From Acidobacteriota bacterium (lineage in GTDB: Bacteria; Acidobacteriota; Thermoanaerobaculia; UBA5066; Gp7-AA6): a stretch of 48,852 nt of DNA. Location of the stretch: assembly GCA_046732075.1 (NCBI GenBank), contig JBKPMI010000053.1, forward strand, positions 1 to 48,852. Direction: 5' to 3'. Below the pieces are notes generated by a model. It worked only from the letters and a program-made list of their open reading frames with translations, was not told the origin of the DNA and did no database searches. This document shows positions 124-39,932 of this stretch, piece by piece. Position 1 is the first letter of the stretch; every line of letters starts with the position of its first letter. The position numbers and the translations under genes are program-made.

Positions 124-222
124 CCGGCTGACGAAAAGCCCGCGCAATCTAGCACGTATTCCCGAGTTCGGAAGCCGGGAGCCGGCAGGCGGGAGTACGC
201 GCTCGCGTAAGATGAATGAAAG

Positions 223-2373: not shown

Positions 2374-2380
2374 TCGACAG

Positions 2381-5332: not shown

Positions 5333-5340
5333 TCTACCAG

Positions 5341-5370
5341 AACGAAAAGGCCGCGGACTCGTCCGCGGCC
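5341..5370 (-). terminator. rho-independent terminator downstream of paralog 1
   Basis: Hairpin GGCCGCGGA-CTCG-TCCGCGGCC (5349-5370). On the minus strand it is followed by TTTTCGTTCT. Confidence 0.6.
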
Positions 5371-5390
5371 CTTGTGTCGACTCCGGAGAT

Positions 5391-6899
5391 TCAGGGGGTT
5401 TGGAGAACGGGCCGCGGCGCCGGCTCGGGAATCGTCCAGCCCTGCGCCCGCGCGGTCTCGAGGTTGTACGTGCCGTCGGCGTTCAGCGTTCCGTTCTTGA
5501 CGAGCAGAGCCCGCGTCGCCTCGGGCAGCCTTTCCGGACCGCCGCCCCTCTCGATCAGGCCGGGCGTGAAGCTCGTGTTCCGGGTGACCGGCTCGTATCC
5601 CACGATCTCGGCGCGCTCGGCGTAGACGACGTAGTGGAATCGGGTATTCCCCGCGCCCTGGACGACGACGCCGTCGGGCCCTTCCTGCGCGACCCGCAGG
5701 GGCGTCGCGCTGTCGAGAGGGGTCAGCGTCGTCATGTAGGTCCCCTCGCGGGCCGTGAACCGGAAGTGGTCGGGCACCTCGATCCGGGCGGAACCGTTCA
5801 CGAGGGACGCCGTTCCCCGGAAGTAGACGTCCACCGTGGGAGCCTCCACCGAGGCGTACCGGATTTCGAGCCCCGGGTTTTCCGGGTGCGGGCTGACGAA
5901 ATTCTTCGTTCCGGTGATGTCCAGCGAGGCGGCCCGGAGCCTCGTGAAGGAGAAAATGCTGTAGCTGATGCCGGCGTCCTGGAGGGAAACGTAGGTGTTT
6001 CCCGCGGCTGTATTGAAGAAGTAGCCGCCGCTCGAGCCCACCTGGGTGGAAAAGCCGTAGACGCCGGCGGAGTTGGTCCCGCTGCTGTGGGTCTCCCCCA
6101 TGACGCCGTACGTGGGCGTGGCCGTGGCGGCCGTTGCGATTCCCTTGACTCCGATGGCGCCGCCCGTCGAGTCCGACTCACCGTACACGCCGATGTTGGC
6201 CCCGGTCGAGGCGATGGCGTAGCCGGAGACGGCGTACCCTCCCGCCGTGCTGAAGATATTTCCCCGAATGCCGCAGGGACCGACGCAGGTCGTCGAGCCG
6301 TTGGTGGTGGCGAGCGAGTACGCGCTGGAGTTGTTGGAGATCGAGAGGAAGTTCTCCGGCGAATCGAGCGTTGCGGAGAAGTACCCGTTGACGTCCATGA
6401 TGACGTGCGTCGAGTGGCTGACATTGACATTCAACTGTTCGCCCGCGCCGAGCGGCACGATCGCCGCGTTCGAGATGACCGTGGCGCCCGGTCCGTAGGT
6501 CATGATCGCGGTGGGCGGCGCGGGCTGGCCGGTCGGCCAGGCGAGCAGAAAAGCCCCGAGCGGAGTTCCGGCCGGGCTCACGACGCTGAAGTTCACCGAG
6601 ATCGCGTCGGCGCCCCCGGGAATTCCGCAGATCCCGGTGACGTCCCAGGTGCGCTGCTGGCTGTTCGCGAAAATGCCGCCCTGGATGGGAGCGCCGTTGC
6701 CGCGGGTGTCGGCGACGCGGCAGGGCTGGATCCCGACGAACACGCGGGGAGAGGTGACGTCGGACATCGTCGTGATTCCGCCCCGAGACGACTGCGTGTA
6801 CGCCGGGACGGTCCAGTTGTGGAGAGGAACGTCGGCGGACTGGGCGCCGGCGATCGAAGCGGTGACGAGCGTGGCCGCCATGACAACGAGGGTTCGCAT
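5391..6899 (-). CDS. secreted tripartite paralog 1 (N-terminal CRxDTR module, G[VI]xG-repeat core, type-A C-terminal module)
   Basis: Lies in the 5391..6947 ORF. The preferred start is the ATG at 6899 (MRTLVVMAATLVTASIAGAQS), preceded by AGGAGGA. The N-module reads NWTVPAYTQSS...QPCRVADTRGNGAPIQGGIF...GICGIP...SVNFSVV...LLAWPTG...IMDVNGYFS. The C-module reads KNFVSPHPENPGLEIRYASVEAPTVDVYFRGTA... Confidence 0.85.
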   Translation of the reverse strand: MRTLVVMAATLVTASIAGAQSADVPLHNWTVPAYTQSSRGGITTMSDVTSPRVFVGIQPCRVADTRGNGAPIQGGIFANSQQRTWDVTGICGIPGGADAISVNFSVVSPAGTPLGAFLLAWPTGQPAPPTAIMTYGPGATVISNAAIVPLGAGEQLNVNVSHSTHVIMDVNGYFSATLDSPENFLSISNNSSAYSLATTNGSTTCVGPCGIRGNIFSTAGGYAVSGYAIASTGANIGVYGESDSTGGAIGVKGIATAATATPTYGVMGETHSSGTNSAGVYGFSTQVGSSGGYFFNTAAGNTYVSLQDAGISYSIFSFTRLRAASLDITGTKNFVSPHPENPGLEIRYASVEAPTVDVYFRGTASLVNGSARIEVPDHFRFTAREGTYMTTLTPLDSATPLRVAQEGPDGVVVQGAGNTRFHYVVYAERAEIVGYEPVTRNTSFTPGLIERGGGPERLPEATRALLVKNGTLNADGTYNLETARAQGWTIPEPAPRPVLQTP

Positions 6900-12102: not shown

Positions 12103-12112
12103 GAGGACGGGT

Positions 12113-13495: not shown

Positions 13496-13539
13496 CCGCG
13501 CCGACGCCGTCCGCGGCGCGGCCGGACGCCCCGGCTCCC

Positions 13540-15863: not shown

Positions 15864-15870
15864 TCCGCGT

Positions 15871-16932: not shown

Positions 16933-18414
16933 ATGAGATCTCTGATCCGGAAAGTGTGCGCCCCCGGCATCCTGGTCCTTCTTCAGACCGCCGGCATCCT
17001 GCGCGCGCAGTCTGTGGATGTTCCACTGCGAAACTGGACCGTCCCGGCGTTCACACAGTCGACCGCCGGCGGAATCCACACCCTGACCGACGTGACCGAG
17101 CCCCGGACGTTCGTCGCCGTCCAGCCCTGCCGGATCGTCGACACGCGCGGCAACGGCGCGCCGATCCAGGGCGGCATCTTCACGAACAGCACGACGCGCA
17201 CGTGGGATTTGAGCGGAATATGCGGCCTGCCGGAATCGATCGCTGCCGTCTCCGTGAACTTCACGGTCGTGGCAGCGGCGGGAATCCCGGCCGGCTCGTT
17301 CCTGCTCGCCTGGCCGACCGGCCAGGCTTTTCCGCCCACCGCGATCATGACCTATGGACCGGGCCAGATCCTTTCCAACGCGGCAATCGTGCCGCTCGGG
17401 CCCGGCGATCAGATGAACGTCGCCGTCAGCGGCTCGACGCACATCATCATGGACATCAACGGGTACTTCGCCGACAGGTTGGGCAACCCATTCAACTCCT
17501 TCGGGCTGACGAACAACAGCGGGAACGCGACGGCATACTTCACGAACGAGTCGACCGGCTGTTCGTCCGGCTGCGCCGTCGACGCTTTTTCCTACAGCAC
17601 CGGACAGGGCAAGGCGATCTCCGGCAAGATGAACTATCTCGGCAACAACTCCGCCGGGGTCTATGGCGCTCACGCGCTCGGACTCACCGGTGTCTCGTAC
17701 CCTCCGGCGGGCGTTCGCGGTGAAAGCCCGCAGCTCGGGGTGCTCGGGATCGGAAACGTCGTCGGCACGTCCGGGAGCGTCGTCGCGACGGGAACGGGGG
17801 CCTACCTCGCCGAGGGGTATATCGGCTACCACACCGCGACGTTCGACTACGGCGTTTACTCGGCCGGGCGGACGGGCGCGAGCGGAACGAAGTCGTTCGT
17901 CGACCCGCACCCGACCGACGCGTCCAAGGTGATTCGATACGTATCGCTCGAAGGCAACGAGCCCGGGACCTATTTCCGGGGGCGGGGCAGGTTCGAGCGT
18001 GGGATAGCGCGGGTCACAGTTCCCGAGGACTTCCGCCTGGTCACGGACGCCGAGGGCCTGACGGTCCAGATCACGCCGATCGGCGCGATGGCGACCGTGG
18101 GCGTGATTCGCATGGATCTGACGGAGATCCTCGTCCAATCCTCGCGCGACGTCGAGTTCTCCTACCTCGTTCAGGGTGTGCGGAAGACCCAGATGGATTC
18201 GCCCTCACCGATCGCCGAGGGTACCGAGTTCATGCCGAAATCGGCGGACGCAACGCTGCCCGCCTACTTCTCCGCCGAGCAGAGACGGCGACTGATACAG
18301 AACGGGACCTACCGCGAGGACGGCACCGTGAACATGGACACGGCGCGGCGGCTCGGCTGGGACAGAACGTGGGAGCAACGCTCGCGCCCGGCGACCCAGC
18401 CGGTCGAGCCGTGA
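16933..18414 (+). CDS. secreted tripartite paralog 2 (type-B C-module), first gene of a four-paralog operon
   Basis: ATG at 16933 follows GGGAGG. The signal peptide is MRSLIRKVCAPGILVLLQTAGILRAQS. The N-module spans 17032-17469 (NWTVPAFTQST...QPCRIVDTRGNGAPIQGGIF...MDINGYF). The C-module reads KSFVDPHPTDASKVIRYVSLEGNEPGTYFRGRGRFERG..., with tail NGTYREDGTVNMDTARRLGWD. Confidence 0.9.
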   Translation: MRSLIRKVCAPGILVLLQTAGILRAQSVDVPLRNWTVPAFTQSTAGGIHTLTDVTEPRTFVAVQPCRIVDTRGNGAPIQGGIFTNSTTRTWDLSGICGLPESIAAVSVNFTVVAAAGIPAGSFLLAWPTGQAFPPTAIMTYGPGQILSNAAIVPLGPGDQMNVAVSGSTHIIMDINGYFADRLGNPFNSFGLTNNSGNATAYFTNESTGCSSGCAVDAFSYSTGQGKAISGKMNYLGNNSAGVYGAHALGLTGVSYPPAGVRGESPQLGVLGIGNVVGTSGSVVATGTGAYLAEGYIGYHTATFDYGVYSAGRTGASGTKSFVDPHPTDASKVIRYVSLEGNEPGTYFRGRGRFERGIARVTVPEDFRLVTDAEGLTVQITPIGAMATVGVIRMDLTEILVQSSRDVEFSYLVQGVRKTQMDSPSPIAEGTEFMPKSADATLPAYFSAEQRRRLIQNGTYREDGTVNMDTARRLGWDRTWEQRSRPATQPVEP

Positions 18415-18467
18415 ACCAAGATTAGGAGAAACCCGTCCGCCCCCGACGCTTTTCAAAGGAGGATTTC

Positions 18468-19961
18468 GTGCGCGCGACGCTCATCTGTTCCGGGATCCTG
18501 CTGATCTCGTCCCTCGGTCTCGCCCAGGACGTCGACGTTTCGCTCCACAACTGGACGGTGCCGCCCTACAGCGAAGCGTCCGCCGGCGGCATCCACACGA
18601 TGACCGACGCGACACCGCCGCGCGCGTTCGTTGGCGTCGTGCCCTGCAGGGTTGCCGACACGCGCGGCAACGGCGCGCCGATCCAGGGCGGAATCTTCGG
18701 AAACAGCGAAGCTCGAAACTGGACGATCTGGGGTGTCTGCGGGATCCCCGTCGAAGCGGATGCCATCTCGGTCAACTTCACCGTCGTCAGCGCGCCTGCG
18801 ACTCCCCAGGGAGGATTTTTGCTGGCCTGGCCGACTGGTCTGCCTCCGGCCAGCACGACCGCACTCATGACCTATGGCCCGGGCGTCACCGTGATCTCGA
18901 ACGCCGCGATCATTCCCCTGAGCAACGGAGCCGGACAGTTGACAGTAAACGCCAGCCACTCGACGCACATCATCATGGACGTCAACGGCTACTTCACCGA
19001 CAGGCTGAATCCCTTCACGAGCGGTTTTCGTCTGGAAAGCTCGGGTGCGGGAGCCACCGCGAGTTTCCTGAACACCAACACCGGTTGCAGCAACCCGGGA
19101 TGTGCCATTTCCGCAATTACCAACACCGTCGTCGACGGCAAGGCAATCGGCGGCCAGACTCCGACCGGCGGCATCCACTCGGCCGGGGTTTGGGGGCGGC
19201 AAGGCGGTCCACTGTTCATACAGACGGCTTACGGCGGCGCCGGAGTCCGGGGGGAGAGCCACAGCCTCGGTGTTCTCGGTATCACGAACACGGAAGTCGC
19301 CTTCGGAGTAGGAGCCTCCGGTTCACTCCTCAACGCGAACGGAAGCGCCGCTCTCGCCGAGGGGTACCTCGGTTACTACACGGGTGTGTCTTACGGCGTC
19401 TACTCGGCCGGGAATGCTCACGTACAGGGGACGCTCACGGCTGTGACGAAGTCGTTCGTGCAGCCGCACCCGAAGGACGCGAGCAAGGAGATCGAGTATG
19501 TCTCCTTAGAAGGACCTCACTCCGAGGTTTACTTTCGCGGCACGGCGCAGATTTCCCACGGCGTCACGCGGATTGCCATTCCGGAGCACTTTCGGCTCGT
19601 CGCGGATCCAGGTACGTATTCGACTCTCGTCACGCCGGTTGGCGGCATGGCAACCGTTGCCGTCCTCTCCGAAGGCGGAGACGGCATCGTGGTCCAGGCG
19701 TCCCGAAACGTGAAGATCCACTATGTCGTGTACGCCGAGCGCGAGGCGGTACCTCATCCCGATCCGATCGTCGAGAACATCCACTTCCGGCCGAACCCGA
19801 ATACCGATTTCTCCGCGCACCTGCCGGAAAGCTTCCGCCAACTTCTCATCCGTAACGGAACGCTCAACCCGGACGGCACCGTGAATACCGAGACGGTGCG
19901 ACGGCTCGGGTGGGCGTCCGCAACGCAAGCGCCGATGCGAGCGTCCGCGGCTGCTCCCTAG
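18468..19961 (+). CDS. secreted tripartite paralog 3 (C-module intermediate between types A and B)
   Basis: GTG start follows AAGGAGG. It has a signal peptide ending GLAQD and the N-module NWTVPPYSEAS...VPCRVADTRGNGAPIQGGIF. The C-module KSFVQPHPKDASKEIEYVSLEGPHSEVYFRGTAQ... mixes type-A and type-B signatures. Confidence 0.9.
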   Translation: MRATLICSGILLISSLGLAQDVDVSLHNWTVPPYSEASAGGIHTMTDATPPRAFVGVVPCRVADTRGNGAPIQGGIFGNSEARNWTIWGVCGIPVEADAISVNFTVVSAPATPQGGFLLAWPTGLPPASTTALMTYGPGVTVISNAAIIPLSNGAGQLTVNASHSTHIIMDVNGYFTDRLNPFTSGFRLESSGAGATASFLNTNTGCSNPGCAISAITNTVVDGKAIGGQTPTGGIHSAGVWGRQGGPLFIQTAYGGAGVRGESHSLGVLGITNTEVAFGVGASGSLLNANGSAALAEGYLGYYTGVSYGVYSAGNAHVQGTLTAVTKSFVQPHPKDASKEIEYVSLEGPHSEVYFRGTAQISHGVTRIAIPEHFRLVADPGTYSTLVTPVGGMATVAVLSEGGDGIVVQASRNVKIHYVVYAEREAVPHPDPIVENIHFRPNPNTDFSAHLPESFRQLLIRNGTLNPDGTVNTETVRRLGWASATQAPMRASAAAP

Positions 19962-19998
19962 TGGAGTTCCCTTCACGTCTTTGCTTTGGGAGGTACCG

Positions 19999-21492
19999 AT
20001 GCAACGGCAGATCCTGTTCGCCACACTCTTTCTTTCCGCTGCACTTTTCCGGGCCCAGGAGATTCCGCTGAACAACTGGACCGTGCCCCCCTATTCGGCG
20101 GCGTCCGCCGGCGGCATCCATACGATGACCGACGTCATCGCGCCGCGAGCGTTCGTCGCCGTCCAGCCGTGCCGGATCGCCGACACCCGCGGCAACGGCG
20201 CTCCGATCCAGGGTGGAACTTTCGGGAGCAGCGAATCGCGAAACTGGTCGGTGGGCGGAGTTTGCGGCCTTCCGAACGGTTTCAACCCGGCGGCGATCTC
20301 GGTCAACTTCACCGTGGTCAGCGCGGCCGCGACCCCGCAGGGCGCGTTTCTTCTCGCGTGGCCGACCGGATCCCCACCCGCCAACGCCGTGGCGATCATG
20401 ACCTTCGGGCCCGGCACCACGGTCATCTCGAACGCGGCGATCGTGCCGATTAACGCCGCAGCGCAGTTGACGGTCAACGTGAGCAACTCGACTCACGTCA
20501 TCATGGACGTGAACAGCTACTTCAGCGATGCCCCCGCGAACCCGGCCAGCAGTCTCCTGCTGGTGACCTCCGGTGGCGCTCCGACGGCAAACTTCCGCAA
20601 CGCCTCATCAGCCTGCGCCATCAACGGATGCGCGATCAACGGAAGCGCCGACACGAACTCCGGCACGGCCGTCGCGGGCGTTGCTCCCTTTGGGGGAAGC
20701 AGCTCCGCCGGGCTCTTCGGCAGCCAGGGGATCCCGGCGCTCGGGAATCACCTTCCGGCGCCCGGGTATCCCGGGGCGGGCGTTCGCGGCGAGAGCCGCA
20801 CGCTGGGGGTCCTCGGCATCACGAACTCGAGCGTTGCCGGCAGCGTCGCCGTCGCGGGTTCGCTCCTCAACACCTCCGGCGCACCCCTGGCCGAGGGATA
20901 CGTCGGCTATCACACCGCGGGCCTGAACTACGGGCTCTTCACGACGGCGAACCTCGGGGGCGCCGGATCGAAGTTTTTCGTGGAGCCTCACCCCACGGAC
21001 GCCTCCAAGGTCATTCGGTACATCTCGCTCGAGGGACCCGAGACGGGAACGTACTTCCGCGGCCGCGGGAAGTTTCAGCGCGGGATGGCGCGGATCGCGG
21101 TCCCCGAAGACTTCCGGATGGTGACCGCGGAGGACGGCCTGAGCGTCCAGGTCACTCCGATCGGAGGGATGGCTTCGGTCGGAGTCCTGAGGGTGAACCT
21201 GAACGAAATCGTCATCGCCGGGTCGAGGGATCTCGAGTTCTATTACACGGTCAACGGTATCCGGCGAACGCAGAAGCATCTGACTTCTCCAATCGGCGAG
21301 GGCACCGAGTTCATGCCTCGATCGCCGGATGCGCAGATGCCGCTGTCGTTCAGCGAGGAGCAGAGGCGCCTCCTCATACAGAACGGGACATACAAGGCGG
21401 ACGGCACGGTCAACCTGGAAACCGCCCGCCGATTGGGGTGGGACCGGACATGGGAAGAGCGCTCACACCCCGGCCCGCAACCCGCCGAGTAG
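19999..21492 (+). CDS. secreted tripartite paralog 4 (type-B C-module)
   Basis: ATG at 19999 follows GGGAGG, giving MQRQILFATLFLSAALFRAQE. It has N-module NWTVPPYSAAS...QPCRIADTRGNGAPIQGGTF and C-module KFFVEPHPTDASKVIRYISLEGPETGTYFRGRGKFQRG. Confidence 0.9.
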   Translation: MQRQILFATLFLSAALFRAQEIPLNNWTVPPYSAASAGGIHTMTDVIAPRAFVAVQPCRIADTRGNGAPIQGGTFGSSESRNWSVGGVCGLPNGFNPAAISVNFTVVSAAATPQGAFLLAWPTGSPPANAVAIMTFGPGTTVISNAAIVPINAAAQLTVNVSNSTHVIMDVNSYFSDAPANPASSLLLVTSGGAPTANFRNASSACAINGCAINGSADTNSGTAVAGVAPFGGSSSAGLFGSQGIPALGNHLPAPGYPGAGVRGESRTLGVLGITNSSVAGSVAVAGSLLNTSGAPLAEGYVGYHTAGLNYGLFTTANLGGAGSKFFVEPHPTDASKVIRYISLEGPETGTYFRGRGKFQRGMARIAVPEDFRMVTAEDGLSVQVTPIGGMASVGVLRVNLNEIVIAGSRDLEFYYTVNGIRRTQKHLTSPIGEGTEFMPRSPDAQMPLSFSEEQRRLLIQNGTYKADGTVNLETARRLGWDRTWEERSHPGPQPAE

Positions 21493-21543
21493 AGCAAATT
21501 CCCGCGAAGCGTGGAACTCTCTTCCGATTTCAGGAGGTGGTGA

Positions 21544-23172
21544 ATGCACAGAACTCTCCGTCTGGTGCTTCTCGGCGGACTCGTTTCCTCCTTCGGCGTA
21601 GCGCAAGAAGTGAACGTGCCGCTACAGAACTGGACCGTTCCACCGTACACGACGGCTTCGACCGGCGGCATCCGCACGATGACCGACGTCTCGGGTCCGC
21701 GGCCCTTCGTGCCGATCGTGCCGTGCCGGGTCGCCGACACGCGTGGCAACGGGGCTCCGATCACAGGAGGCATCTTTGCCAATAGCGAGGCGCGTGACTG
21801 GCTGATCTGGGGCAAGTGTGGGATTCCCTCGGGCGCGGATGCGATCTCCGTCAACTTCACCGTCGTGAGCGCGGCGGCGACGCCGCAGGGCGCCTTTCTT
21901 CTCGCATGGCCGACGGGATCGCCGCCGCCTCCCGGCTCCATCACGGCGATCGTCACCTACGGTCCGGGCGTCACGGTCATCTCCAACGCCGCGATCGTCC
22001 CCCTCGGGCAAAGCGCCGGACAGATGACCGTGAACGTCAGCAACTCGACCCACATCATCATGGACGTCAACGGGTACTTCTCCGACATCCTTCAGATGCC
22101 CTTGAACGGCTTCGCGGTCAGGAACGAGTCGAACGCGATCCCGACCATGGACGTCCGAAATGACGCCTCGAACTGCACGCTCCCGGACGGCTGTGCGATT
22201 CGCGCATCGAGTTTTACTGGAAATGCCGTCTCGGGTTACGCGCAGCAGCCCGGCACGGCCGCCACGTACGGGGTTCGAGGAAGTGTCTCGTCGCAGGGGC
22301 CGCTCGCCGCAGGCGTGAAAGGCGAGGGCTATTACAGAGGCATCCACGGGGCGGGAGCAAACGTCACCGACGCCTCGGGAGTCTTCGGAAACTTCGGCGT
22401 CACCCTGGTGGTCGGTAGTTCCTATGGTCCGTACCTCCCGCACGGCGTTCGAGGAGAGGGGTCGCTGGGAGGCGTGCTCGGAATCTCGCCCTACGAGGGC
22501 GTCGCCGGCTCTCTGCTCAACGCCTCGGGCGGCGAGATCGCGTGGGGCGCACTCGGTCTCGCGCTGAACGTCGCCACCGACCCGGGCTGCCCCACGAATC
22601 CCTGCAGCGGCCCCTGGGCGGTCATGGCCGGCGGCAACATCGGCGCCACCGGAAACAAGTATTTTCTGGAACCGCACCCGACAGATCCCAACCTCTCAAT
22701 CGCGTACATTTCACTCGAGGGGCCGGAGGCCGGAACGTATTTCCGCGGCCGCGGGCGGTTCCTGAACGGCACCGCACGGATCCCGGTGCCGGAGCACTTT
22801 CGTCTCGTCACCGATCCGGAAGGTCTGACGGTTCAGATCACGCCGATCGGCGAAATGGCGAGCTTCGCCGTCGTTCGGATGGGACTCGACGAGATCGTCG
22901 TAAAGGCGTCGCGCAACGTCGAGTTCTCGTATCTGGTGCAGGGAGTTCGGGCGAGCTTCCGGGACGCGCAGCCGTTGCGGCAGGGGGGCGATTTCATGCC
23001 GAGATCTCCGGACGCGAAAATGCCGCTCTGGCTCTCTCCGGCGCAGAGACGGACTCTCGTTCGGAACGGAACGTATCGCGAGGACGGCACCGTTAACATG
23101 GAGACCGCCCGACACCTCGGTTGGGACAAGGTCTGGGAAGAGCACGCGCCGGGCGGACCCGAAGAACGCTAG
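21544..23172 (+). CDS. secreted tripartite paralog 5 (type-B C-module)
   Basis: ATG follows CAGGAGG. The signal peptide is MHRTLRLVLLGGLVSSFGVAQE. It has N-module NWTVPPYTTAS...VPCRVADTRGNGAPITGGIF, a long Gly-rich core and C-module KYFLEPHPTDPNLSIAYISLEGPEAGTYFRGRGRF. Confidence 0.9.
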   Translation: MHRTLRLVLLGGLVSSFGVAQEVNVPLQNWTVPPYTTASTGGIRTMTDVSGPRPFVPIVPCRVADTRGNGAPITGGIFANSEARDWLIWGKCGIPSGADAISVNFTVVSAAATPQGAFLLAWPTGSPPPPGSITAIVTYGPGVTVISNAAIVPLGQSAGQMTVNVSNSTHIIMDVNGYFSDILQMPLNGFAVRNESNAIPTMDVRNDASNCTLPDGCAIRASSFTGNAVSGYAQQPGTAATYGVRGSVSSQGPLAAGVKGEGYYRGIHGAGANVTDASGVFGNFGVTLVVGSSYGPYLPHGVRGEGSLGGVLGISPYEGVAGSLLNASGGEIAWGALGLALNVATDPGCPTNPCSGPWAVMAGGNIGATGNKYFLEPHPTDPNLSIAYISLEGPEAGTYFRGRGRFLNGTARIPVPEHFRLVTDPEGLTVQITPIGEMASFAVVRMGLDEIVVKASRNVEFSYLVQGVRASFRDAQPLRQGGDFMPRSPDAKMPLWLSPAQRRTLVRNGTYREDGTVNMETARHLGWDKVWEEHAPGGPEER

Positions 23173-23195: not shown

Positions 23196-23229
23196 AAAGC
23201 CCCGGCTCGCGCCGGGGCTTTCGTTTTTT
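23196..23229 (+). terminator. rho-independent terminator (hairpin family 1), between convergent genes
   Basis: AAA-GCCCCGGC-TCGC-GCCGGGGC-TTTCGTTTTTT. The identical 20-nt hairpin recurs at 27216 and 30994. Confidence 0.8.
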
Positions 23230-23241: not shown

Positions 23242-25248
23242 CTACTCCGCCAGGCCGGCGCGACGGAGCAACTCCGGAAAGCGGGGATCCCCGCGGAGGG
23301 GGTCGTAAAGCGGATCGACCTTCAACGCCGGATGGACGATCCGCTCCCGGAACAGGTTCTCCAGCAACGCGAGCGCCTTTTCCTTCTCGTTCACGCCGAT
23401 GTAGGCGATCGGAAGCATCACCATCGGGTTCCGTGGCTCGCGGCGTGCGAACTCCTCCAGCCTTTCGAGCGCGCGGCGAGCTTCGGCGTCGCGGCCCTGG
23501 CGCCCGTACACGTAGACTTCGGCTGCCCAGTTCCACGGCCCGTCATCGATCTGGCGCCATTTCTCGATTTCTGCGAGCGCCTCGTCGAACATCTGCTTCT
23601 GCGAGTACGCCCACACGATCGTGTAAGCCCGCGGAAACGCCGCATCTCTCTCGATCACGGCGCGAAATCGTTCGATGGCGCGGTCGTACTGGCGGGCGTA
23701 GTACAGGATCGCACCGTCGTCCGCGGCGATGATCAGCGACAATGGATCGAGCCGGCGCGCGCGATCGCTTTCTTCGAGCGCCTCGCGAAATCGTCCCTGG
23801 AAAGACAGCAGCTCGGCATACCAATGGTGCGCCGTGGCGTAGCTCGGATTCAGCTGGATGGCACGGCGAAACTCTTTCTCGGCGGCCTTCCAATCCCAGT
23901 CATATCTTTCGTGGATCAGCGCGAGGGAGTTGTGGGCCTCGGCCAGACGATCGTCGAGCTCGAGCGCCCGCAGCGCGGCCGAGCGCGCCTTCGGCATGAG
24001 CTCCTTCGCCGATCCCGGGCTGTAGGTGCTCATCAGCGCGTAGGTATCGGCCACGCCGGCGTAAGCCCGTGCGTACGTCGGATCCTTTTCCGCCGCCCGC
24101 TCGAAATGCTCCACGGCCTTCGCGAAGTCCTCCCCCGTCCGCTTGTTCCAGAAGTGGCGGCCCTTGAGATAGAGGTCGTACGCTTCGTACGACTCCGGTG
24201 AAAGCGGCGCTGGATGGCCGTCGATCCGAGTCCCGGGAGCGAGCGTCAGATCGATCTCGTTCGCGACAGCCTGCGCGATCTCCTCCTGGACCGCGAGCAC
24301 GCTCTTCACTTCACGGTCGTACTGCCGGGCCCAGAGATGCGTCCCATCGCGCACCTGAATGAGCTGGGCGCTGATCCGCATCCGGTTTGCTTCACGCCGG
24401 ACACTGCCTTCGAGCAGGTAGTCGATGCGGAGATCCCGGCCGATCTGATCGAGCCGCGCCCGATTGCGTTTGTAGGGCATGACCGATGTGCGCGCGATTA
24501 CCCCGAGCCGCTGGGGGTCGAATGCCCCCAGTCGACTGATCATTTCCTCGGTCAAACCATCGCTGAAGTATTCCTGGGAAGGATCGCCCGTGAGGTTCTC
24601 GAACGGCAGCACCGCCATCATCAACCGTCCGCCGACCGGCGGAGCTTTGCTTCTCTGAAGGTAGATGAGCGGAGCGACGATCAGGAGGAGCCCGAGGCCG
24701 AGCAGGATCGGCCAGCGGCCGGAAACGGGATTGGCGCGGAGGTTTTCGCCTTTCCTCGCGGGGGTCTCCGCCGGTTCGACGGAAGGGGCGGGAACCGCGG
24801 AAGCCGAAGCAGCAGAGGCGGGCGGTGCTTCCTCCACGACCGCCGCGACGAACCGGTAACCCTTTCCGGTGACGGTCTGGATGACCCGGGGCTTCTCCGG
24901 GTCGTCTCGCAACGCCTGCCGGAGCTTGCGGATGGCGCCGTTGATGCTGTTGTCGGTATCCAGAAAGACTTCCCTGCCCCAGACCCGCTCGACGATCTCG
25001 TCCCGGCTGACGAGCTGTCCCTTCCTTTCGACGAGGAGGAGCAGGATTTCCATCGGAATCCGCTCGAGCTTGAGCGGACGTCCCGAGCGGCGCAGCTCGT
25101 AGGCGCGGGGGTCGAGCTCGAAAATCTGCCCGAATCGGAGAGGCCGCGGGATCCTGGCGGGGTCGGGTTCCACGGTGGTCGTCCCCGGCTTCCGGGGAGC
25201 GTGACTGTACATCGGCTCCGAATTCGCGGCAAATCCAAACGGCACCAC
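23242..25248 (-). CDS. membrane-anchored CadC/ToxR-like transcriptional regulator (OmpR/PhoB-type winged helix + TM + TPR), copy 1
   Basis: 668-aa ORF. The N-terminal trans_reg_C-like domain reads ELRRSGRPLKLERIPMEILLLLVERKGQLVSRDEIVERVWG...TVTGKGYRF. A single TM helix (WPILLGLGLLLIVAPLIYL) and the MAVLPFENLTGDP...YFSDGLTEEMISRLG region follow, then multiple TPR-like repeats. Confidence 0.85.
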   Translation of the reverse strand: MVPFGFAANSEPMYSHAPRKPGTTTVEPDPARIPRPLRFGQIFELDPRAYELRRSGRPLKLERIPMEILLLLVERKGQLVSRDEIVERVWGREVFLDTDNSINGAIRKLRQALRDDPEKPRVIQTVTGKGYRFVAAVVEEAPPASAASASAVPAPSVEPAETPARKGENLRANPVSGRWPILLGLGLLLIVAPLIYLQRSKAPPVGGRLMMAVLPFENLTGDPSQEYFSDGLTEEMISRLGAFDPQRLGVIARTSVMPYKRNRARLDQIGRDLRIDYLLEGSVRREANRMRISAQLIQVRDGTHLWARQYDREVKSVLAVQEEIAQAVANEIDLTLAPGTRIDGHPAPLSPESYEAYDLYLKGRHFWNKRTGEDFAKAVEHFERAAEKDPTYARAYAGVADTYALMSTYSPGSAKELMPKARSAALRALELDDRLAEAHNSLALIHERYDWDWKAAEKEFRRAIQLNPSYATAHHWYAELLSFQGRFREALEESDRARRLDPLSLIIAADDGAILYYARQYDRAIERFRAVIERDAAFPRAYTIVWAYSQKQMFDEALAEIEKWRQIDDGPWNWAAEVYVYGRQGRDAEARRALERLEEFARREPRNPMVMLPIAYIGVNEKEKALALLENLFRERIVHPALKVDPLYDPLRGDPRFPELLRRAGLAE

Positions 25249-25346: not shown

Positions 25347-27188
25347 ATGAAGAGGGCTCGAGTTTCGCGGAAGGAGTCGAGCGCGCGTCATCCAGGCGAC
25401 CTCATCGGCAGGTCGCAGAGGACGCCTCTTCGAAGGACGGTCATGTCTGCGGGCCTCGCGGCGGTTCTGATCACTTCGAGCCTGTCCGCCCAGGATGTTC
25501 CCCTCCACAACTGGACGGTTCCGCCCTATTCGGCGACCAGCGGCAGCGGGATCCACACGATGACCGACGCGACGCCGCCCCGCGCCTTCGTGGGACTCGT
25601 CCCCTGCCGCGTCGCGGACACCCGGGGCAACGGCGCTCCGATCCAAGGCGGCATCTTCGGCAACAGCACGGCGCGCGACTGGACGGTGTCGGGAATTTGC
25701 GGGATCCCGGCGGGCGCCGATGCGATCTCCGTCAACTTCACCGTCGTCAGTACCGCGGCGACTCCGCAGGGAGCATTCCTTCTCGCCTGGCCGACCGGAT
25801 CGCCGCCTGCCAACCCGGTGGCGATCATGACCTACGGTCCCGGTGTCACGGTCATTTCCAACGCGGCGATCGTGCCGCTGAACGGATCCGGGCAGCTGAC
25901 CGTCAACGTCAGCCATTCGACGCACGTCATCATGGACGTCAACGGGTACTTTTCCGACAGGATCGGGAACCCGGCCAACTACCTCGAACTGTGGAACAAC
26001 GCTCCCGGCCTCCCGACGGCGTTCATCGTCAATTCTTCGACCGCGGACAATTCCTCCGGCGTATACGGCGTGGCCGCGGGCGGCGCGGCCACTCCGCTCT
26101 ATCCGGCGGCAGGCGTGCACGGGGAGAGTCCGTTCTTGGGCGTTCTCGGCGCCTCGTTTGCGCGGGGCGTCGTCGGAAGCCTCATGTCAACGCCGAACCC
26201 TTTCTCGTCGGAGCTCGCCCAAGGAATTCTCGCCTACCATGTCGACATTGCCGATCCCGCGATCCATGGTCTGGACGTCGGCGCCTTCGGCCAAACGGCA
26301 AGCTCGGTCGCCCAGTCGGCCGGCGTCATCGGCTACAACACAGCGCAGACCGGTGCGGTGGCCGGCGTCCGCGGCGTCATCGGCAGTCAGTCCGCCGGCG
26401 CGGCCGGGGTGCGGGGGCAGGACGGAGGGGGCGCTGTCGGTAACCCCAACGGTCAAAAGGCCGAATTCCCTTACCGAGCGAGCACCGGAGTACGGGGCGA
26501 ATCCCACCTGAACAACGGAGTCTTCGGGCTCACGAACCTGGGAATTGGGGTCATGGGCGAGGCGATCAACGCCAATGGTTTTGTCAATGCGTACGGCTTT
26601 CTGGGCCGCGGCGGCAACACGAATCTGGGCGTCTACGCGGGCGGAAGCTTCGAGGCCAGCGGGTCGAAGAGCTTCGTGGACCCGCATCCCACTGACCCAT
26701 CGAAAGTGATCCGGTATTACTCGCTCGAAGGACCCGAGTCCGGCACGTATTTCCGGGGGCGGGGAAAGTTCGAGCGCGGGATCGCGCAAATCACCGTGCC
26801 CGACGACTTCCGCATGGTCACGGATCCCGGCGGTCTCACCGTGCAGGTGACCCCGATCGGCAGCATGGCGTCCTTCGCGGTGCTTCGAGCAGATTTGAAC
26901 GAGATCGTCGTGCAGTGCTCGAGAAACGTCGAGTTCTATTACCTGGTCCAGGGAGTCCGCGCGACTCATCCAGATCTCAAACCATTCGGCCCCGGGGACG
27001 AGTTCCGGCCGGAAAGTGCCGACGCCCGGCTCCCCCTCTGGTTGTCGGAAGGTCAGAAACGGCTTCTGATCCAGAACGGCACCTACAACGCGGACGGCAC
27101 GGTCAACATGGAGACCGCGCGTCGTCTCGGGTGGGACAAGATCTGGGAAGAACGCTCCCGACCCGAGCCGCAACCGACGGAACCCTGA
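25347..27188 (+). CDS. secreted tripartite paralog 6 (longest core, type-B C-module)
   Basis: ATG at 25347 follows GAAAGGAG; an alternative start at 25443 gives MSAGLAAVLITSSLSAQD. It has N-module NWTVPPYSATS...VPCRVADTRGNGAPIQGGIF, a G[VI]xG-rich core at about 25953-26663, and C-module SKSFVDPHPTDPSKVIRYYSLEGPESGTYFRGRGKFERG. Confidence 0.85.
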   Translation: MKRARVSRKESSARHPGDLIGRSQRTPLRRTVMSAGLAAVLITSSLSAQDVPLHNWTVPPYSATSGSGIHTMTDATPPRAFVGLVPCRVADTRGNGAPIQGGIFGNSTARDWTVSGICGIPAGADAISVNFTVVSTAATPQGAFLLAWPTGSPPANPVAIMTYGPGVTVISNAAIVPLNGSGQLTVNVSHSTHVIMDVNGYFSDRIGNPANYLELWNNAPGLPTAFIVNSSTADNSSGVYGVAAGGAATPLYPAAGVHGESPFLGVLGASFARGVVGSLMSTPNPFSSELAQGILAYHVDIADPAIHGLDVGAFGQTASSVAQSAGVIGYNTAQTGAVAGVRGVIGSQSAGAAGVRGQDGGGAVGNPNGQKAEFPYRASTGVRGESHLNNGVFGLTNLGIGVMGEAINANGFVNAYGFLGRGGNTNLGVYAGGSFEASGSKSFVDPHPTDPSKVIRYYSLEGPESGTYFRGRGKFERGIAQITVPDDFRMVTDPGGLTVQVTPIGSMASFAVLRADLNEIVVQCSRNVEFYYLVQGVRATHPDLKPFGPGDEFRPESADARLPLWLSEGQKRLLIQNGTYNADGTVNMETARRLGWDKIWEERSRPEPQPTEP

Positions 27189-27210: not shown

Positions 27211-27244
27211 AAAGGGCCCCGGCTCGCGCCGGGGCTTTCGTTTT
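27211..27244 (+). terminator. rho-independent terminator (hairpin family 1)
   Basis: GCCCCGGC-TCGC-GCCGGGGC at 27216-27235, followed by TTTCGTTTT. It lies between paralog 6 and convergent regulator copy 2. Confidence 0.8.
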
Positions 27245-27254: not shown

Positions 27255-29237
27255 TCAATCCGCCAGGCCGGCGCGGCGGAGAATGTTTTGAAAGCGGGAA
27301 TCTTCGCGGAGGGGATCGTAGAAGGGATCCACCTTCAACGTCGCGATGACGCTCGACCGGTCGCGGAAGAGCTTCTCCAGGGAGTCGAGCGCCTTCTCTT
27401 TCTCGTTCACCCCAATGTAGGCAACGGGAAGCATCGGCATCGGGTCCGCCGGTCGATCCCGGCCCCACCGTTCCAGCCTTTCGAGCGCCTGGCGGGCCTC
27501 GGCGTGCCGGCCCAGGCGTTCGTACACGCAAACTTGAGCCGCCCAGCTCCAGGTCTGGTCCGCGATGCTGCGCCACTTCTCGACCTGCGCCAGAGCCTCC
27601 GAGTACATGCCCTTCTGCAGGTACGGCCAGACCACCATGTTGGCCTTCAGGAAGCGCGGTTCCCTCTCGAGTACCGAGCGGAACTCGTCGATCGCACGAT
27701 CGGGTTGCCCCGCGAAGTACCGGATCGTGGCGTGATCGGTCGAGATGATCAGAGAGAGCGGATCGAGCCGGCTGGCGCGCTCGCTCTCGACGAGGGCTTC
27801 ACGGAACCGTCCCTGGAAGGCCAGGAACTCGGCGTACCAGTGATGGGCCGTCGAATAGTTCGGCCCCAGCTCGATGGCCCGGCGAAACTCTTTCTCGGCG
27901 GACTTCCAGTCCCAATCGAACTGCTCCCGGATGAGCGCGAGGGACGTGTGGGCTTCGGCCAGGCGGTCATCGAGGTCGAGCGCCCGGATGGCCGCCGAGC
28001 GGGCCTTCGGCATGAGCTCCATCGGCGATCCGAGGTCGTAGGTGCTCATCAGAGCGTAGGCGTCCGCCAGGCCCGAATAGGAACGCGCGTACGCGGGATC
28101 CTTTTCCGCGGCCCGCGCGAAGTAAGCCACGGCCCGTTCGAACCCGTCGGCCGTACGCAGGTTCCAGAAGTAGCGGCCCTTCAGATAGAGGTCGTAGGCT
28201 TCGTAGCCTTCAGGTGAGAGGAGCGCGGGAGCGCCGGCCCGATTGCCGGGCTCGAGCGTGAGCTGGATCTGGTCCGCCACGGCCTGCGCAATCTCTTCCT
28301 GGACCGCCACGAGGCTGCTCAACTCGCGGTCGTACTGCCGCGACCAGAGATGGGTCTGATCGCTCATCTGGATGAGCTGGGCGCTGATCCGCACGCGGTC
28401 TGCGTCGCGCCGGACACTCCCTTCCAGCACGTAATCCACGCCCAGCTCACGGCCGATCCGGTCGAGCGAGGGCCGATCCCGGTACTGCATGACCGAGGTC
28501 CGCGCGATGATCGCCAGGCGCTGGGGATCGAGGTTTCCCAATCGGCCGATCATCTCTTCGGTCAGCCCGTCGCTGAAGTAGTCCTGCGCCGGATCGCCGG
28601 TCAGGTTTGCGAAGGGAAGAACCGCCAGCATTCGCCGCCGCCGGAGGAGTCGGGCGCGGGGCTGTTGGAGATAGACCGCACCCGCGATGAGCGCGAGCGC
28701 AAGACCAAGCACGATCAGCCGGTGCCGGGACGAGGGAGATGTTGCGGGGATTCCTGGACCTTCCCCTTGCGGGCGATCTCTCGGCTGAGGCCCGGCCTCG
28801 GAGACAGGAGCCGGGGAATGGGCGATGTCGGAGGCATCCTCCTCGACGGGAGCGATGAACCGGTAGCCTTTGCCGGTGACCGTCTGGATGAAACGCGGCT
28901 TCTCCGGATCGTCCCGCAGGACCAGGCGGAGCTTCCGGATCGCGGTGTTGACACTGTTGTCCACGTCAACGAAAACTTCCGGGCCCCAGACTCTTTCGAC
29001 GATCTGCTCGCGCGTGACGAGCTCTCCCCTCCGTTCGACCAACACGAGGAGCAGTTCCATCGGGATGCGCTCGAGTTTGAGAGCGCGGCCGGAGCGCCGA
29101 AGCTCGTAGGCGCGGAAGTCGAGCTCGAAAACCCGGCCGAATCGGACGGGCCTGGGAATCCCGGCTGGATCGAGTTCCACGGGCAGTTCCCTGGAGCAGG
29201 GAGCGAAACTGTAACCCGGCTCCGGATTCGGGCGCAA
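27255..29237 (-). CDS. membrane-anchored CadC/ToxR-like transcriptional regulator (winged helix + TM + TPR), copy 2
   Basis: 660-aa ORF collinear with 23242..25248 and similar along its whole length, with the same winged helix, single TM helix, LAVLPFANLTGDP...YFSDGLTEEMIGRLG region and TPR region. Confidence 0.85.
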   Translation of the reverse strand: MRPNPEPGYSFAPCSRELPVELDPAGIPRPVRFGRVFELDFRAYELRRSGRALKLERIPMELLLVLVERRGELVTREQIVERVWGPEVFVDVDNSVNTAIRKLRLVLRDDPEKPRFIQTVTGKGYRFIAPVEEDASDIAHSPAPVSEAGPQPRDRPQGEGPGIPATSPSSRHRLIVLGLALALIAGAVYLQQPRARLLRRRRMLAVLPFANLTGDPAQDYFSDGLTEEMIGRLGNLDPQRLAIIARTSVMQYRDRPSLDRIGRELGVDYVLEGSVRRDADRVRISAQLIQMSDQTHLWSRQYDRELSSLVAVQEEIAQAVADQIQLTLEPGNRAGAPALLSPEGYEAYDLYLKGRYFWNLRTADGFERAVAYFARAAEKDPAYARSYSGLADAYALMSTYDLGSPMELMPKARSAAIRALDLDDRLAEAHTSLALIREQFDWDWKSAEKEFRRAIELGPNYSTAHHWYAEFLAFQGRFREALVESERASRLDPLSLIISTDHATIRYFAGQPDRAIDEFRSVLEREPRFLKANMVVWPYLQKGMYSEALAQVEKWRSIADQTWSWAAQVCVYERLGRHAEARQALERLERWGRDRPADPMPMLPVAYIGVNEKEKALDSLEKLFRDRSSVIATLKVDPFYDPLREDSRFQNILRRAGLAD

Positions 29238-29351: not shown

Positions 29352-30965
29352 ATGGACACGGGAGGTTGGGTGAAACCGGGTCGGCTCGCTTTGGGTCTCT
29401 TCCTCGGTGCGGCCGGGCTCCACGCCCAGGCCGACGTCCCTCTTTCGAACTGGACGGTGCCCCCATATGCAGCCTCCTCCGCGGGCGGCATCACCACGAT
29501 GACCGACGTCACGCAGGGAATCGGGTTCGTCGGGATCACACCCTGCCGGGCCGCCGATACGCGCGGCAACGGCGCCCCGATCCAGGGGGGCATCTTTCCC
29601 GACAGCGGTCTGCGGACGTGGGACCTGACCGGGATCTGCGGCATTCCCGCGGGTGCCGATGCGGTCTCGGTCAATTTCACGGTCGTTCCAACCGTGGCGG
29701 CGCCCTCCGGGGCGTTCCTTCTGGCGTGGCCGACCGGCCAGGCGCCCCCGCCCACCGCGATCATGACTTACGGGCCGGGCCAGACGATCATCTCGAACGC
29801 GGCGATCGTGCCTCTCGGCGCCGGCGAGCAGATGCAGGTCAACGTCAGCCACTCGACTCACGTCATCATGGACGTCAACGGATACTTCACGGACGCCTAC
29901 AACCCCGGGGTCCGTTTTACAGCAACCATCTCGGGGGTGGGAGGGGCGGTCCAAGGGAGAAACGTCGCGACTCTGGCGGGTGCATACGGGGTCGAGGGCA
30001 GCATTTCAACGACAACCTCGGCAAACAGCTCTGCCGGGGTGCGCGGCATCAACGACGGGACGGGAGCCGCCGGAATCGGAGTCTGGGGATCCCAGGCCGG
30101 CAGCGGCTGGGGCGTCTTCGGCGAAGCGCCGACGGGCTTCGGCGTCGTCGGGAGAGTCGCAACGGACATCGCCAACAGGGCCGGAGTGCTGGGACAGTCG
30201 GGATTCGTCACTCCGGCTGGCAGCTACTCGACGGCGGGCGTTCGTGGCGAAGGGAGAGCCGGCGTGCTCGGGGTCAGCGGAAACTTCCTGGGCGGAGGTG
30301 AAGCAGTCGTCGGGTCTCTGGTCGACGGCTTCGGCGCCGAGATCCGATACGGTTCACTCGCAACCAGTTTCGGAGTCAATCCCTCGGGCGGCAGTGCTCC
30401 CTGGGCGGTCTTCGGGGGCGGAGACATCGGCGCGACCGGGACGAAACACTTCCTCGACCCGCATCCGACCGACGCGGCCAAGGAAATCGCCTATATCTCG
30501 CTCGAAGGGCCGGAGGCCGGGACGTATTTCCGCGGGCGCTCCAAGTTCCAGAACGGCATGGCGCGGATTCCCGTGCCCGACCATTTCCGTTTCGTGACGG
30601 ATCCGGAGGGTCTGACCGTGCAGATCACGCCAATTGGGGCGATGGCGAGCGTCGCCGTCCTGAAGATGGACTTGAACGAGATCGTCGTCCAGGCTTCCCG
30701 CAACGTGGAGTTCTCCTACCTGGTTCAGGGAGTTCGCTCCACGTTCAAGGACCTTTCCCCGATCCGGGAAAGCGGCGACTTCATGCCCCGGTTCGCCGAC
30801 GCGAAGATGCCGGGGTGGTTGAGTCCCGCTCAAAAGCGCCTGCTCATCCAGAACGGGACCTACCGGGAGGACGGCACGGTCAATTCGGAGACCGCGCAAC
30901 GTCTGGGTTGGGACAAGGTCTGGGAGCAGCGCTCCCGACCCGCGCCGCAAGCCTCCCAGCCCTAA
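29352..30965 (+). CDS. secreted tripartite paralog 7 (type-B C-module)
   Basis: ATG at 29352 follows GAAAGGAG, giving MDTGGWVKPGRLALGLFLGAAGLHAQAD. It has N-module NWTVPPYAASS...TPCRAADTRGNGAPIQGGIF and C-module KHFLDPHPTDAAKEIAYISLEGPEAGTYFRGRSKF. Confidence 0.9.
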   Translation: MDTGGWVKPGRLALGLFLGAAGLHAQADVPLSNWTVPPYAASSAGGITTMTDVTQGIGFVGITPCRAADTRGNGAPIQGGIFPDSGLRTWDLTGICGIPAGADAVSVNFTVVPTVAAPSGAFLLAWPTGQAPPPTAIMTYGPGQTIISNAAIVPLGAGEQMQVNVSHSTHVIMDVNGYFTDAYNPGVRFTATISGVGGAVQGRNVATLAGAYGVEGSISTTTSANSSAGVRGINDGTGAAGIGVWGSQAGSGWGVFGEAPTGFGVVGRVATDIANRAGVLGQSGFVTPAGSYSTAGVRGEGRAGVLGVSGNFLGGGEAVVGSLVDGFGAEIRYGSLATSFGVNPSGGSAPWAVFGGGDIGATGTKHFLDPHPTDAAKEIAYISLEGPEAGTYFRGRSKFQNGMARIPVPDHFRFVTDPEGLTVQITPIGAMASVAVLKMDLNEIVVQASRNVEFSYLVQGVRSTFKDLSPIRESGDFMPRFADAKMPGWLSPAQKRLLIQNGTYREDGTVNSETAQRLGWDKVWEQRSRPAPQASQP

Positions 30966-30987: not shown

Positions 30988-31022
30988 GAAAAAGCCCCGG
31001 CTCGCGCCGGGGCTTTGATTTC
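30988..31022. terminator. bidirectional rho-independent terminator (hairpin family 1), shared by paralog 7 and groEL
   Basis: GAAAAA-GCCCCGGC-TCGC-GCCGGGGC-TTTGATTT. There are T-runs after the hairpin on both strands (minus strand reads ...GGGGCTTTTTCTTTCC). Confidence 0.8.
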
Positions 31023-39879: not shown

Positions 39880-39903
39880 CCAGGTGGATCTCTGAATCTC
39901 GAA

Positions 39904-39932
39904 GGCCGCGGCGGGCGCCGCGGCCTTTTTTT
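39904..39932 (+). terminator. rho-independent terminator (hairpin family 2)
   Basis: GGCCGCGGC-GGGC-GCCGCGGCC followed by TTTTTTT. The stem arms are the same as at 37969. Confidence 0.85.

Follow-up and report, generated by a model that had tools for sequence, protein, structure and literature searches.

The closest described counterparts of the system analyzed here are the mosaic adhesive trimeric (MAT) fibres of Bdellovibrio bacteriovorus, such as Bd2133 and Bd3182, of which a single genome encodes 21 paralogs (Caulton et al., 2024; PMC10769870). The MAT proteins share a common plan, in which a signal peptide and a conserved beta-rich N-terminal domain of ~130 aa are followed by a trimeric fibre with either Peptidase_S74 or non-S74 tips; the N-terminal domain, which has no solved structure, is presumed to bind an element of the predator surface (PMC10769870). 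The accessible part of the supplements to that paper contains no mention of Acidobacteria. Here we analyze nine paralogous genes, designated c1 to c9, in a stretch of 48,852 nt from an uncultured soil Acidobacteriota bacterium of the class Thermoanaerobaculia (contig JBKPMI010000053.1; the whole stretch is hereinafter called the window). These genes probably represent a Thermoanaerobaculia-specific repertoire of Sec-exported, most likely homotrimeric fibres that follow the phage tail-fibre plan and resemble the MAT fibres; they would probably be displayed on the surface and serve in adhesion. A literature search found nothing on this protein family in Acidobacteria.

All nine open reading frames (ORFs) that a first-pass annotation of this DNA had grouped as paralogs of one architecture are intact, and their MAFFT alignment bears out a common four-part layout: signal peptide, N-module, Gly-rich core and C-terminal region (C-module). 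The proteins are 493–613 aa long and start with ATG, except for c3, which starts with GTG. The genes, with the parts of c2, for which a structural model was built with AlphaFold2 (AF2), are as follows (HMM, hidden Markov model).

5391..6899, minus strand: c1, 502 aa, C-module of subtype A; the closest paralog is c8 (63% identity overall)
16933..18414, plus strand: c2, 493 aa, first gene of a four-gene run, protein modelled (AF2)
16933..17007, plus strand: signal peptide of c2, aa 1–25, with probable cleavage between A25 and Q26 (the A-Q pair is invariant in all nine)
17008..17475, plus strand: N-module of c2, conserved peptide and 8-strand jelly-roll (HMM, AF2)
17476..17886, plus strand: Gly-rich variable core of c2, aa 182–318, with G[VIL]xG beta-repeats, presumed stalk (alignment, AF2)
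17887..18411, plus strand: C-module of c2, aa 319–493, a C-terminal domain of the phage minor-tail/tail-fibre type with a helical tail (PHROGs, tblastn, Foldseek)
18468..19961, plus strand: c3, 497 aa, GTG start, counterpart of gene 1 in the array of a related species (locus L005; 75% identity)
19999..21492, plus strand: c4, 497 aa, counterpart of gene 2 in the L005 array (72% identity)
21544..23172, plus strand: c5, 542 aa, end of the four-gene run (ORF, alignment, module HMMs)
25347..27188, plus strand: c6, 613 aa, with the longest core and a long basic n-region (ORF, alignment, module HMMs)
29352..30965, plus strand: c7, 537 aa (ORF, alignment, module HMMs)
36362..37945, plus strand: c8, 527 aa, C-module of subtype A (alignment)
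38329..39879, plus strand: c9, 516 aa, mosaic relative to c8 (alignment)

Building separate profiles for the modules, as the first-pass annotation had proposed, gave an N-module HMM and a C-module HMM that each recover all nine genes from the six-frame translation of the window (E-values of 1e-84 to 1e-91 and 1e-72 to 1e-86, respectively), so the nine-gene family is not a chance assemblage. The same search detected additional N-type domains in four downstream genes (39816-46025) that had previously escaped notice. None of the nine proteins has a Pfam or NCBIfam match at E<=1, apart from two isolated sub-threshold matches in c5 (E 0.19 and 0.033), and neither the whole-protein profile nor those of the N- and C-modules match any PDB sequence, in agreement with the original failure to name a family. 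The feature is real, non-random and conserved, and although no named family in the libraries used fits it, its parts can be interpreted.

The C-module is homologous to the C-terminal domains of phage minor-tail and tail-fibre proteins. Five of the five paralogs tested match phrog_17490 and phrog_28536 (E 1.2e-9 to 1.3e-13 with the better family in each case), which consist of phage proteins of unknown function whose members are annotated as minor tail protein. A tblastn search with the C-module against 50,697 phage genomes yielded 137 records, among them gp19 of the Arthrobacter phages Mufasa8 and Sonali, a 'minor tail protein' whose gene immediately follows those of the tape measure and two minor tail proteins; proteins of cyanomyoviruses, encoded between the baseplate hub and the tail fibre, are also among the records. 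A shared motif, F..(P/D)HP…Y.S.E.P…Y.G…G.A.V.LP..F…QLTP, can be read by eye in both the C-module and the phage translations. Comparison of the c2 model (a monomer built on a 119-sequence alignment, mean predicted local distance difference test score (pLDDT) 84.6) with the predicted viral structures in BFVD using Foldseek produced 52 matches at E<=1e-3 (best 3.9e-9), including phage proteins annotated as 'Minor tail protein', 'Tail protein' and 'Collagen triple helix repeat' and a tail fibre-like protein of P-SSM2; the fold matches of the whole chain in the PDB are limited to weak jelly-roll ones (E>=2e-3). Matches to a Drexlerviridae 'putative exodeoxyribonuclease VIII', e.g., in L003 (Escherichia phage JakobBernoulli, 21254-22315), were considered doubtful and were not used (E ~5e-4, 24% identity); they sit in a recombination module and reflect either chance or a misleading annotation.

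In the c2 model, the C-module is beta-rich and has three helices at its end. The phage proteins, like those in the window, have a Gly-rich region before the homologous domain; however, the cellular copies start with a signal peptide and a jelly-roll where the phage ones have a virion-attachment region, and the window type of the domain adds a helical extension of ~45 aa (NGT…DGT.N.ET…GW). Among the nine paralogs, the C-modules are 32–77% identical (mean 52%) and fall into subtype A (c1 and c8) and subtype B (c2, c4, c5, c6, c7 and c9), which are only about 35–39% identical to each other, with c3 being intermediate. Thus, of the 'conserved ends' described initially, the N-terminal one holds but the conservation of the C-terminal one was overstated. 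The adjacent genes c8 and c9 have nearly identical signal peptides and N-modules that are 83% identical, but C-modules of different subtypes with 39% identity, which points to past recombination or domain swapping between copies.

The trimeric character of the fibres is suggested by the relatives of the N-terminal unit. In related genomes, this unit, which comprises the signal peptide, an 'NW..PPYW' peptide and the jelly-roll, is fused to other C-terminal parts, and the ten such relatives examined are distributed as follows.

5 of 10: NTA.G repeats ending in a Peptidase_S74 (PF13884) intramolecular chaperone (E 3e-11 to 4e-9)
2 of 10: collagen triple-helix repeats (L029 and L039; E 1e-13)
3 of 10: GV.G.S repeats ending in a 'FKIDHPLDP…' variant of the window C-module

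Both S74 domains and collagen helices typify trimeric fibres, so the N-terminal unit appears to be a constant head-piece for interchangeable trimeric fibre bodies. The nine proteins themselves have no Pfam match to Peptidase_S74 at E<=1 and none to collagen G-X-Y repeats (PF01391), from which the spacing in their cores differs. A relative of 1017 aa (L032, 9986-13036) combines the N-unit and a variant C-module with a long insert of 'LKVAHCSN.ACT' repeats between them (a weak Pfam match to DUF1936), so the stalk evidently accepts very different inserts. A metagenome protein of 988 aa (P0001) contains two complete fibre units head-to-tail (N-core-C-N-core-C), representing either a real fusion or a read-through gene call.

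The N-modules of the nine paralogs are 63–84% identical (mean 73%; the first-pass annotation, by eye, had come close with 70–85%), with a ratio of nonsynonymous to synonymous divergence (dN/dS) of 0.23, whereas the cores are only 21–49% identical (mean 32%) with a dN/dS of 0.65. Given also the 52% mean identity of the C-modules, the N-terminus is the constant end of these proteins. The cores are 137–235 aa long, contain 16–26% Gly and carry recurring G[VIL]xG motifs at a spacing of 8–15; in c2, the core is modelled as a strand-poor, confidently placed Gly-rich segment followed by beta-hairpins.

The N-module consists of a conserved peptide of ~25 aa (NWTVP..GGI.T.TD; low pLDDT in c2) and a jelly-roll of ~125 aa, which in the c2 model is an eight-strand beta-sandwich (residues 59–180, pLDDT >93) with two invariant Cys residues. 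A domain-only model has a pLDDT >90 throughout the jelly-roll, and its top PDB matches are to the C-terminal tip domain of the Bd2133 fibre (8ond, E 1.6e-5; 8ok3, TMt 0.66 and rmsd 3.6 A at 14–16% identity). In the Bd2133 tip crystal, a peptide was bound in the pocket of the trimer. The next fold matches are trimeric jelly-rolls of the TNF/C1q-like type; they comprise Ena as well as BC2L-C (lectin), BclA (C-terminal domain) and Pgp3, and the last three score only weakly (E 2e-3 to 1e-2, TM-score 0.3–0.45). The heads of BclA, BC2L-C and Pgp3 are, like the N-module, jelly-roll beta-sandwiches of similar size, and such heads cap collagen-like (BclA) or other trimeric stalks, just as relatives of this family have collagen stalks; in the fibres described here, the domain is N-terminal. 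Together with the phage homology of the C-module and the S74 and collagen relatives, the match of the predicted N-module fold to a trimeric tip supports the tail-fibre or trimeric-adhesin logic proposed at the outset.

The N-module contains a mobile domain, its ~125-aa core, which extends from 'PCR.ADTR' to 'D.NGYF'. Within the window, this domain is also found at the C-terminus of the four genes mentioned above, so that, together with the nine fibre copies, the module occurs 13 times.

41154..41540, plus strand: C-terminal N-type jelly-roll of a beta-propeller protein of the GSDH (PQQ sugar dehydrogenase-like) type, gene 39816-41546 (E 2.5e-24)
43102..43506, plus strand: C-terminal N-type domain of a reprolysin/M12B-like metalloprotease, gene 41776-43512 (E 2e-20)
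43603..44010, plus strand: N-type domain forming the entire mature part of a 163-aa secreted protein, gene 43525-44016 (E 1.6e-15)
45669..46019, plus strand: C-terminal N-type domain of an FG-GAP repeat protein, gene 44190-46025 (E 2e-12)

These four genes are consecutive on the plus strand, and each carries a single copy of the domain, unlike the triplets among the best-scoring proteins elsewhere. In an exhaustive profile search of 1.84 billion representatives (clusters at 50% identity), the N-domain was detected at E<=1e-3 in 37,431 representative clusters, of which 11,942 reach E<=1e-30. Among the best 150 of the 37,431 by total score, 134 proteins contain three copies, 13 contain six, and nine, eight and five copies are found in one protein each. 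These 150 proteins contain 157 tandem blocks of exactly three domains, compared with a single block of two domains and a single block of five; the median linker length is 9 aa, and the block lies at the C-terminus in 140 of the 150. Proteins with four or five copies would have topped this ranking, yet are essentially absent from it. The companion domains elsewhere include GH10, GH113, Peptidase_S8 with PKD, BACON and fn3; in the multi-copy proteins, the Pfam and NCBIfam libraries matched the companions only, never the N-domain itself. Hence, the N-domain represents an un-named family of very large size whose members seem to function in threes. Because triple copies occur in monomeric enzymes, a single copy per chain occurs in fibres with relatives of the trimeric type, and the best fold match is a trimeric tip, we infer that this domain acts as a trimer or pseudo-trimer.

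Export of the fibres is predicted from their N-termini. All nine signal peptides have a basic n-region, a hydrophobic core (mean Kyte-Doolittle hydropathy over 10 residues, KD(10), of 2.2–3.1), Ala at -1 and an invariant Gln next; the A-Q pair had been noted originally. None of the nine has a lipobox, and the mature parts lack a strong hydrophobic segment (maximum KD(19) of 1.29–1.68). The chain ends in a soluble beta/alpha domain, which has a Pro-rich tail. There are no Pfam matches in the nine proteins to the YadA_anchor beta-barrel or to the head or stalk repeats of trimeric autotransporter adhesins. Nor do they have a Pfam or NCBIfam match to S-layer homology (SLH) or other S-layer anchoring domains, and nothing specific supports the S-layer-like array that had been considered at first. 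Five N-x-S/T sequons are conserved among the 119 homologues (NWT in 91, NFT in 116, NVS in 108, NxS in 78 and NGT in 117) and are modestly enriched over shuffled sequences (z 1.3–4.1), which is only suggestive of N-glycosylation; no oligosaccharyltransferase was identified that would accompany it.

A profile search retrieved at least 426 whole-protein homologues, and all 120 of those listed have the full N-to-C architecture; these 120 are devoid of Pfam domains, and those among them that are named derive from metagenome-assembled genomes (MAGs) of Thermoanaerobaculia. Likewise, among the species-representative genomes, the full architecture is found only in Thermoanaerobaculia and unclassified Acidobacteriota MAGs, often in tandem runs and with many genes per genome. 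The counterparts of c3 and c4 are adjacent and in the same order in another species (L005), which also shares the flanking Wzy_C, GT2 and sugar-transferase genes. The identity of c3 and c4 to these counterparts exceeds the highest identity between paralogs within the window (63%), so the paralogs predate the species split and have been individually maintained, and thus are old. Synonymous divergence (dS) among the paralogs is high (0.5–1.4, with medians of 0.86–1.44), ruling out recent concerted evolution, and non-adjacent copies share no exact DNA match longer than 35 nt.

Based on these observations, we propose the following scheme. The signal peptide is followed by the family-constant N-unit, i.e., the ~25-aa peptide and the ~125-aa jelly-roll. 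The jelly-roll would be a threefold unit, assembled from three chains with one copy each (a trimer) or from three tandem copies in one chain (a pseudo-trimer), and could serve as a 'handle' for binding glycans or surfaces. Such a handle would form the cell-proximal base of the fibres and would also tether secreted enzymes, of which the window encodes four, in the way SLH triplets do. The rapidly evolving Gly-rich core of variable length would be the stalk, and the C-module, in its two subtypes, the distal ligand-binding tip, so that the maintained paralogs may provide a set of different reach and binding specificities. The genes c2–c5 would be co-transcribed, and c6 and c7 would each lie beside its own divergent membrane regulator with winged-helix and tetratricopeptide repeat (TPR) domains. 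The trimeric state, surface anchoring, ligand binding and expression of the fibres are thus predictions of this scheme.

Several observations weigh against it. The AF2 models are of monomers only, and the trimer is deduced from the S74 and collagen relatives and from the pattern of copies in threes. The similarity of the N-module to Bd2133 is limited to the fold, at 14–16% identity and with no match to PDB sequences, and this closest solved fold is an adhesive tip rather than a base, so that the polarity could be reversed. The ranking of the best 150 proteins by total score favours those with multiple copies, and therefore the prevalence of single copies is not measurable from it; moreover, the single copies on the four enzymes in the window do not readily fit an obligate threefold unit unless these enzymes trimerize. 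No lipobox, transmembrane segment, PEP-CTERM or beta-barrel anchor that would hold the nine proteins on the cell was found in them. Finally, the exopolysaccharide (EPS) and glycosyltransferase genes that accompany the array recur only at the orthologous locus L005 and not at other fibre loci; the linkage to EPS genes as a general feature was accordingly dropped.

The absence of a recognizable membrane or cell-wall anchor, along with the fact that the N-module most closely matches adhesive tips and lectins in structure (the Bd2133 tip, the BC2L-C lectin and carbohydrate-binding modules (CBMs)), would fit a reversed or double-ended polarity, in which the N-module is a distal, lectin- or CBM-like head that binds environmental polysaccharide or another cell, and the proteins are either released as bivalent cross-linkers (an extracellular matrix component or agglutinin) or held to the cell by the C-module. 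The attachment of the domain to GH10 and GH113 glycoside hydrolases, in the manner of classical CBMs, is compatible with this arrangement as well, although its presence also on proteases, PQQ dehydrogenase-like and FG-GAP proteins argues against a general role in plant polysaccharide binding. We nevertheless consider this possibility unlikely, if well worth keeping in mind: the N-unit heads S74-ended fibres, whose C-terminus is the distal, processed end in all characterized phage and MAT cases (PMC10769870), and the N-module is the most conserved part of the protein, as expected of a region that docks to a common partner rather than to diverse targets.

Two other explanations appear much less plausible than a fibre repertoire with a constant N-terminal base. 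The clustering of nine paralogs within 35 kb, with a conserved N-end and a divergent remainder, and the c8/c9 mosaic (N-modules 83%, C-modules 39%) are reminiscent of the sap locus of Campylobacter fetus, where S-layer or antigenic-variation cassettes share an N-terminal anchor, a single copy is expressed and recombination switches between copies. The divergence reported above, with dS of 0.5–1.4 and no more than 35 nt of exact match between non-adjacent copies, leaves no recombination substrates, and we reject such cassettes given that the paralogs lack long identical DNA; furthermore, each copy has its own Shine-Dalgarno sequence, terminator-like hairpins end the c2–c5 run, c6 and c7, counterparts of c3 and c4 are conserved in another species, no SLH or S-layer domain is matched, and the fold and homology evidence favours fibres over lattices. 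This makes a sap-like system highly improbable. Even harder to credit is that the genes encode true tail fibres of a prophage, a tailocin or another phage-derived particle, despite the homology and fold matches of the C-module to phage tail proteins. Tail fibres are assembled in the cytoplasm, but all nine proteins have Sec signal peptides; no capsid, tail, baseplate or terminase genes were found within the 48.8 kb, where the neighbours are of the housekeeping type; the GC content at third codon positions is host-like in the copies measured (0.82–0.87); and gene order at the locus is shared with a related species, where the array lies beside the same set of EPS genes. Prophage origin was rejected on gene context and the signal peptides.

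The comparison with the MAT fibres reveals both shared and distinct features. At the level of architecture only, the two have in common a signal peptide directly before a beta-rich domain of ~130 aa that is constant within the family, a fibre body akin to phage tail fibres, many paralogs per genome, and swappable C-terminal parts that are either S74 (in relatives of this family) or non-S74, the kind present in all nine window copies; in addition, the predicted fold of the N-module has its best match in the Bd2133 tip domain. Unlike the MAT fibres, however, the proteins of this family are ~500 aa in length, about half of the ~1000 aa of MAT proteins, their stalk consists of Gly-rich G[VIL]xG repeats rather than long beta-helices, the Bd2133-like fold is N-terminal instead of C-terminal, the host (an acidobacterium) is not a known predator, the N-domain is also used on enzymes and in triplets, and the non-S74 C-module is new among described cellular proteins. 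Accordingly, by analogy, the family seems to work like the MAT fibres, but we do not assign it as a member, and the whole architecture cannot be assigned to the MAT family. The initial conclusion that the architecture could not be placed therefore stands with respect to family assignment, but it is less unprecedented than it seemed, given that the MAT fibres share its plan (PMC10769870).

The likeness to SLH domains is one of functional logic only. In Gram-positive bacteria, SLH triplets, which form a pseudo-trimer, tether S-layer proteins and exoenzymes to cell-wall glycan, and the N-domain is similarly a module found in exact threes on proteins of surface structures, xylanases and proteases. 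The SLH domain is helical, whereas the N-domain is a jelly-roll, and the two have no sequence or fold relation; binding of the N-domain to a polymer is our prediction.

The four-gene run c2–c5 is probably co-transcribed, judging from its sequence. Its gaps are 53, 37 and 51 nt, a GGAGG Shine-Dalgarno sequence precedes every gene, and a single strong terminator follows, in accord with the operon of four identified in the first-pass annotation; inside the run, there are only two weak hairpins (5–6 pairs, 3 G-C), at the c3/c4 junction and within c4. The hairpins come from a hairpin scan and the regulators from domain matches.

23196..23221, plus strand: terminator-like hairpin that closes c2–c5, with an 11 bp stem (8 G-C) and a T-tract
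27216..27235, either strand: hairpin GCCCCGGCGCGAGCCGGGGC after c6, readable as a terminator on both strands
30991..31016, either strand: hairpin of the same GCCCCGGCGCGAGCCGGGGC type after c7
23242..25248, minus strand: membrane regulator with an OmpR/PhoB-type winged helix, a transmembrane segment and TPR, divergent from c6
27255..29237, minus strand: paralogous regulator (winged helix, transmembrane segment, TPR), divergent from c7

The GC-rich hairpin GCCCCGGCGCGAGCCGGGGC and its complement are common to the 3' sides of c5, c6 and c7. Judging by position, the product of 23242..25248 possibly regulates c6. Given that c6 and c7 are alike in their upstream regions, terminator hairpins and regulators, entire cassettes consisting of a regulator and a fibre gene seem to have been duplicated. 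The pairing with such regulators was rejected as a conserved trait: beside N-domain genes in other genomes, only the TPR-sensor similarity recurs, with output domains that vary among winged helix, Ser/Thr kinase and none.

Divergently upstream of c2–c5 lies an EPS/O-antigen-type cluster (9432-15959; Wzy_C ligase-like, GT2, Bac_transf sugar transferase, GT2 and GT1), which is syntenic in the related MAG locus L005 (positions 2-6892). Glycosyltransferases and a PMT_2-type gene (46006-47628, minus strand) are located near the fibre genes, and the other genes in the window include uvrA, a class A penicillin-binding protein, groEL and a GDP-mannose dehydratase-like gene. The window is GC-rich (63–75%), and its GC content falls near position 16000, from 0.70–0.745 in the first 16 kb to 0.63–0.67 in the fibre-rich region of 16–40 kb.

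Although Acidobacteriota rank among the most abundant soil bacteria, their surface structures are, to our knowledge, almost entirely uncharacterized. This locus offers a concrete, testable model of one such structure, namely, surface fibres that appear to be derived from phage tail fibres and to have a constant base. We are also aware of experimental characterization of the MAT-type logic of a constant base and a swappable tip in Bdellovibrio only, and the fibres described here would extend this logic to another phylum and to much shorter proteins. The C-module supplies a cellular context for PHROGs 17490 and 28536. Added interest comes from the un-named family to which the N-module belongs: its use in threes predicts a trimer or pseudo-trimer and docking to a glycan or surface, and could help to annotate tens of thousands of secreted enzymes from soil metagenomes. 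Going further, and in our estimate rather against the odds, the N-module might define an undescribed surface-display system widespread in Acidobacteriota, in which a threefold handle docks fibres, glycoside hydrolases and proteases onto a glycan of the envelope or EPS, and the nine fibres form a MAT-like repertoire that recognizes other cells or polymers. If so, the N-module would be a Gram-negative functional counterpart of the SLH triplets, with three tandem copies on monomeric enzymes and one per chain of the trimeric fibres, and the fibres would imply contact-dependent interactions, such as aggregation, epibiosis or predation, in uncultured Thermoanaerobaculia.

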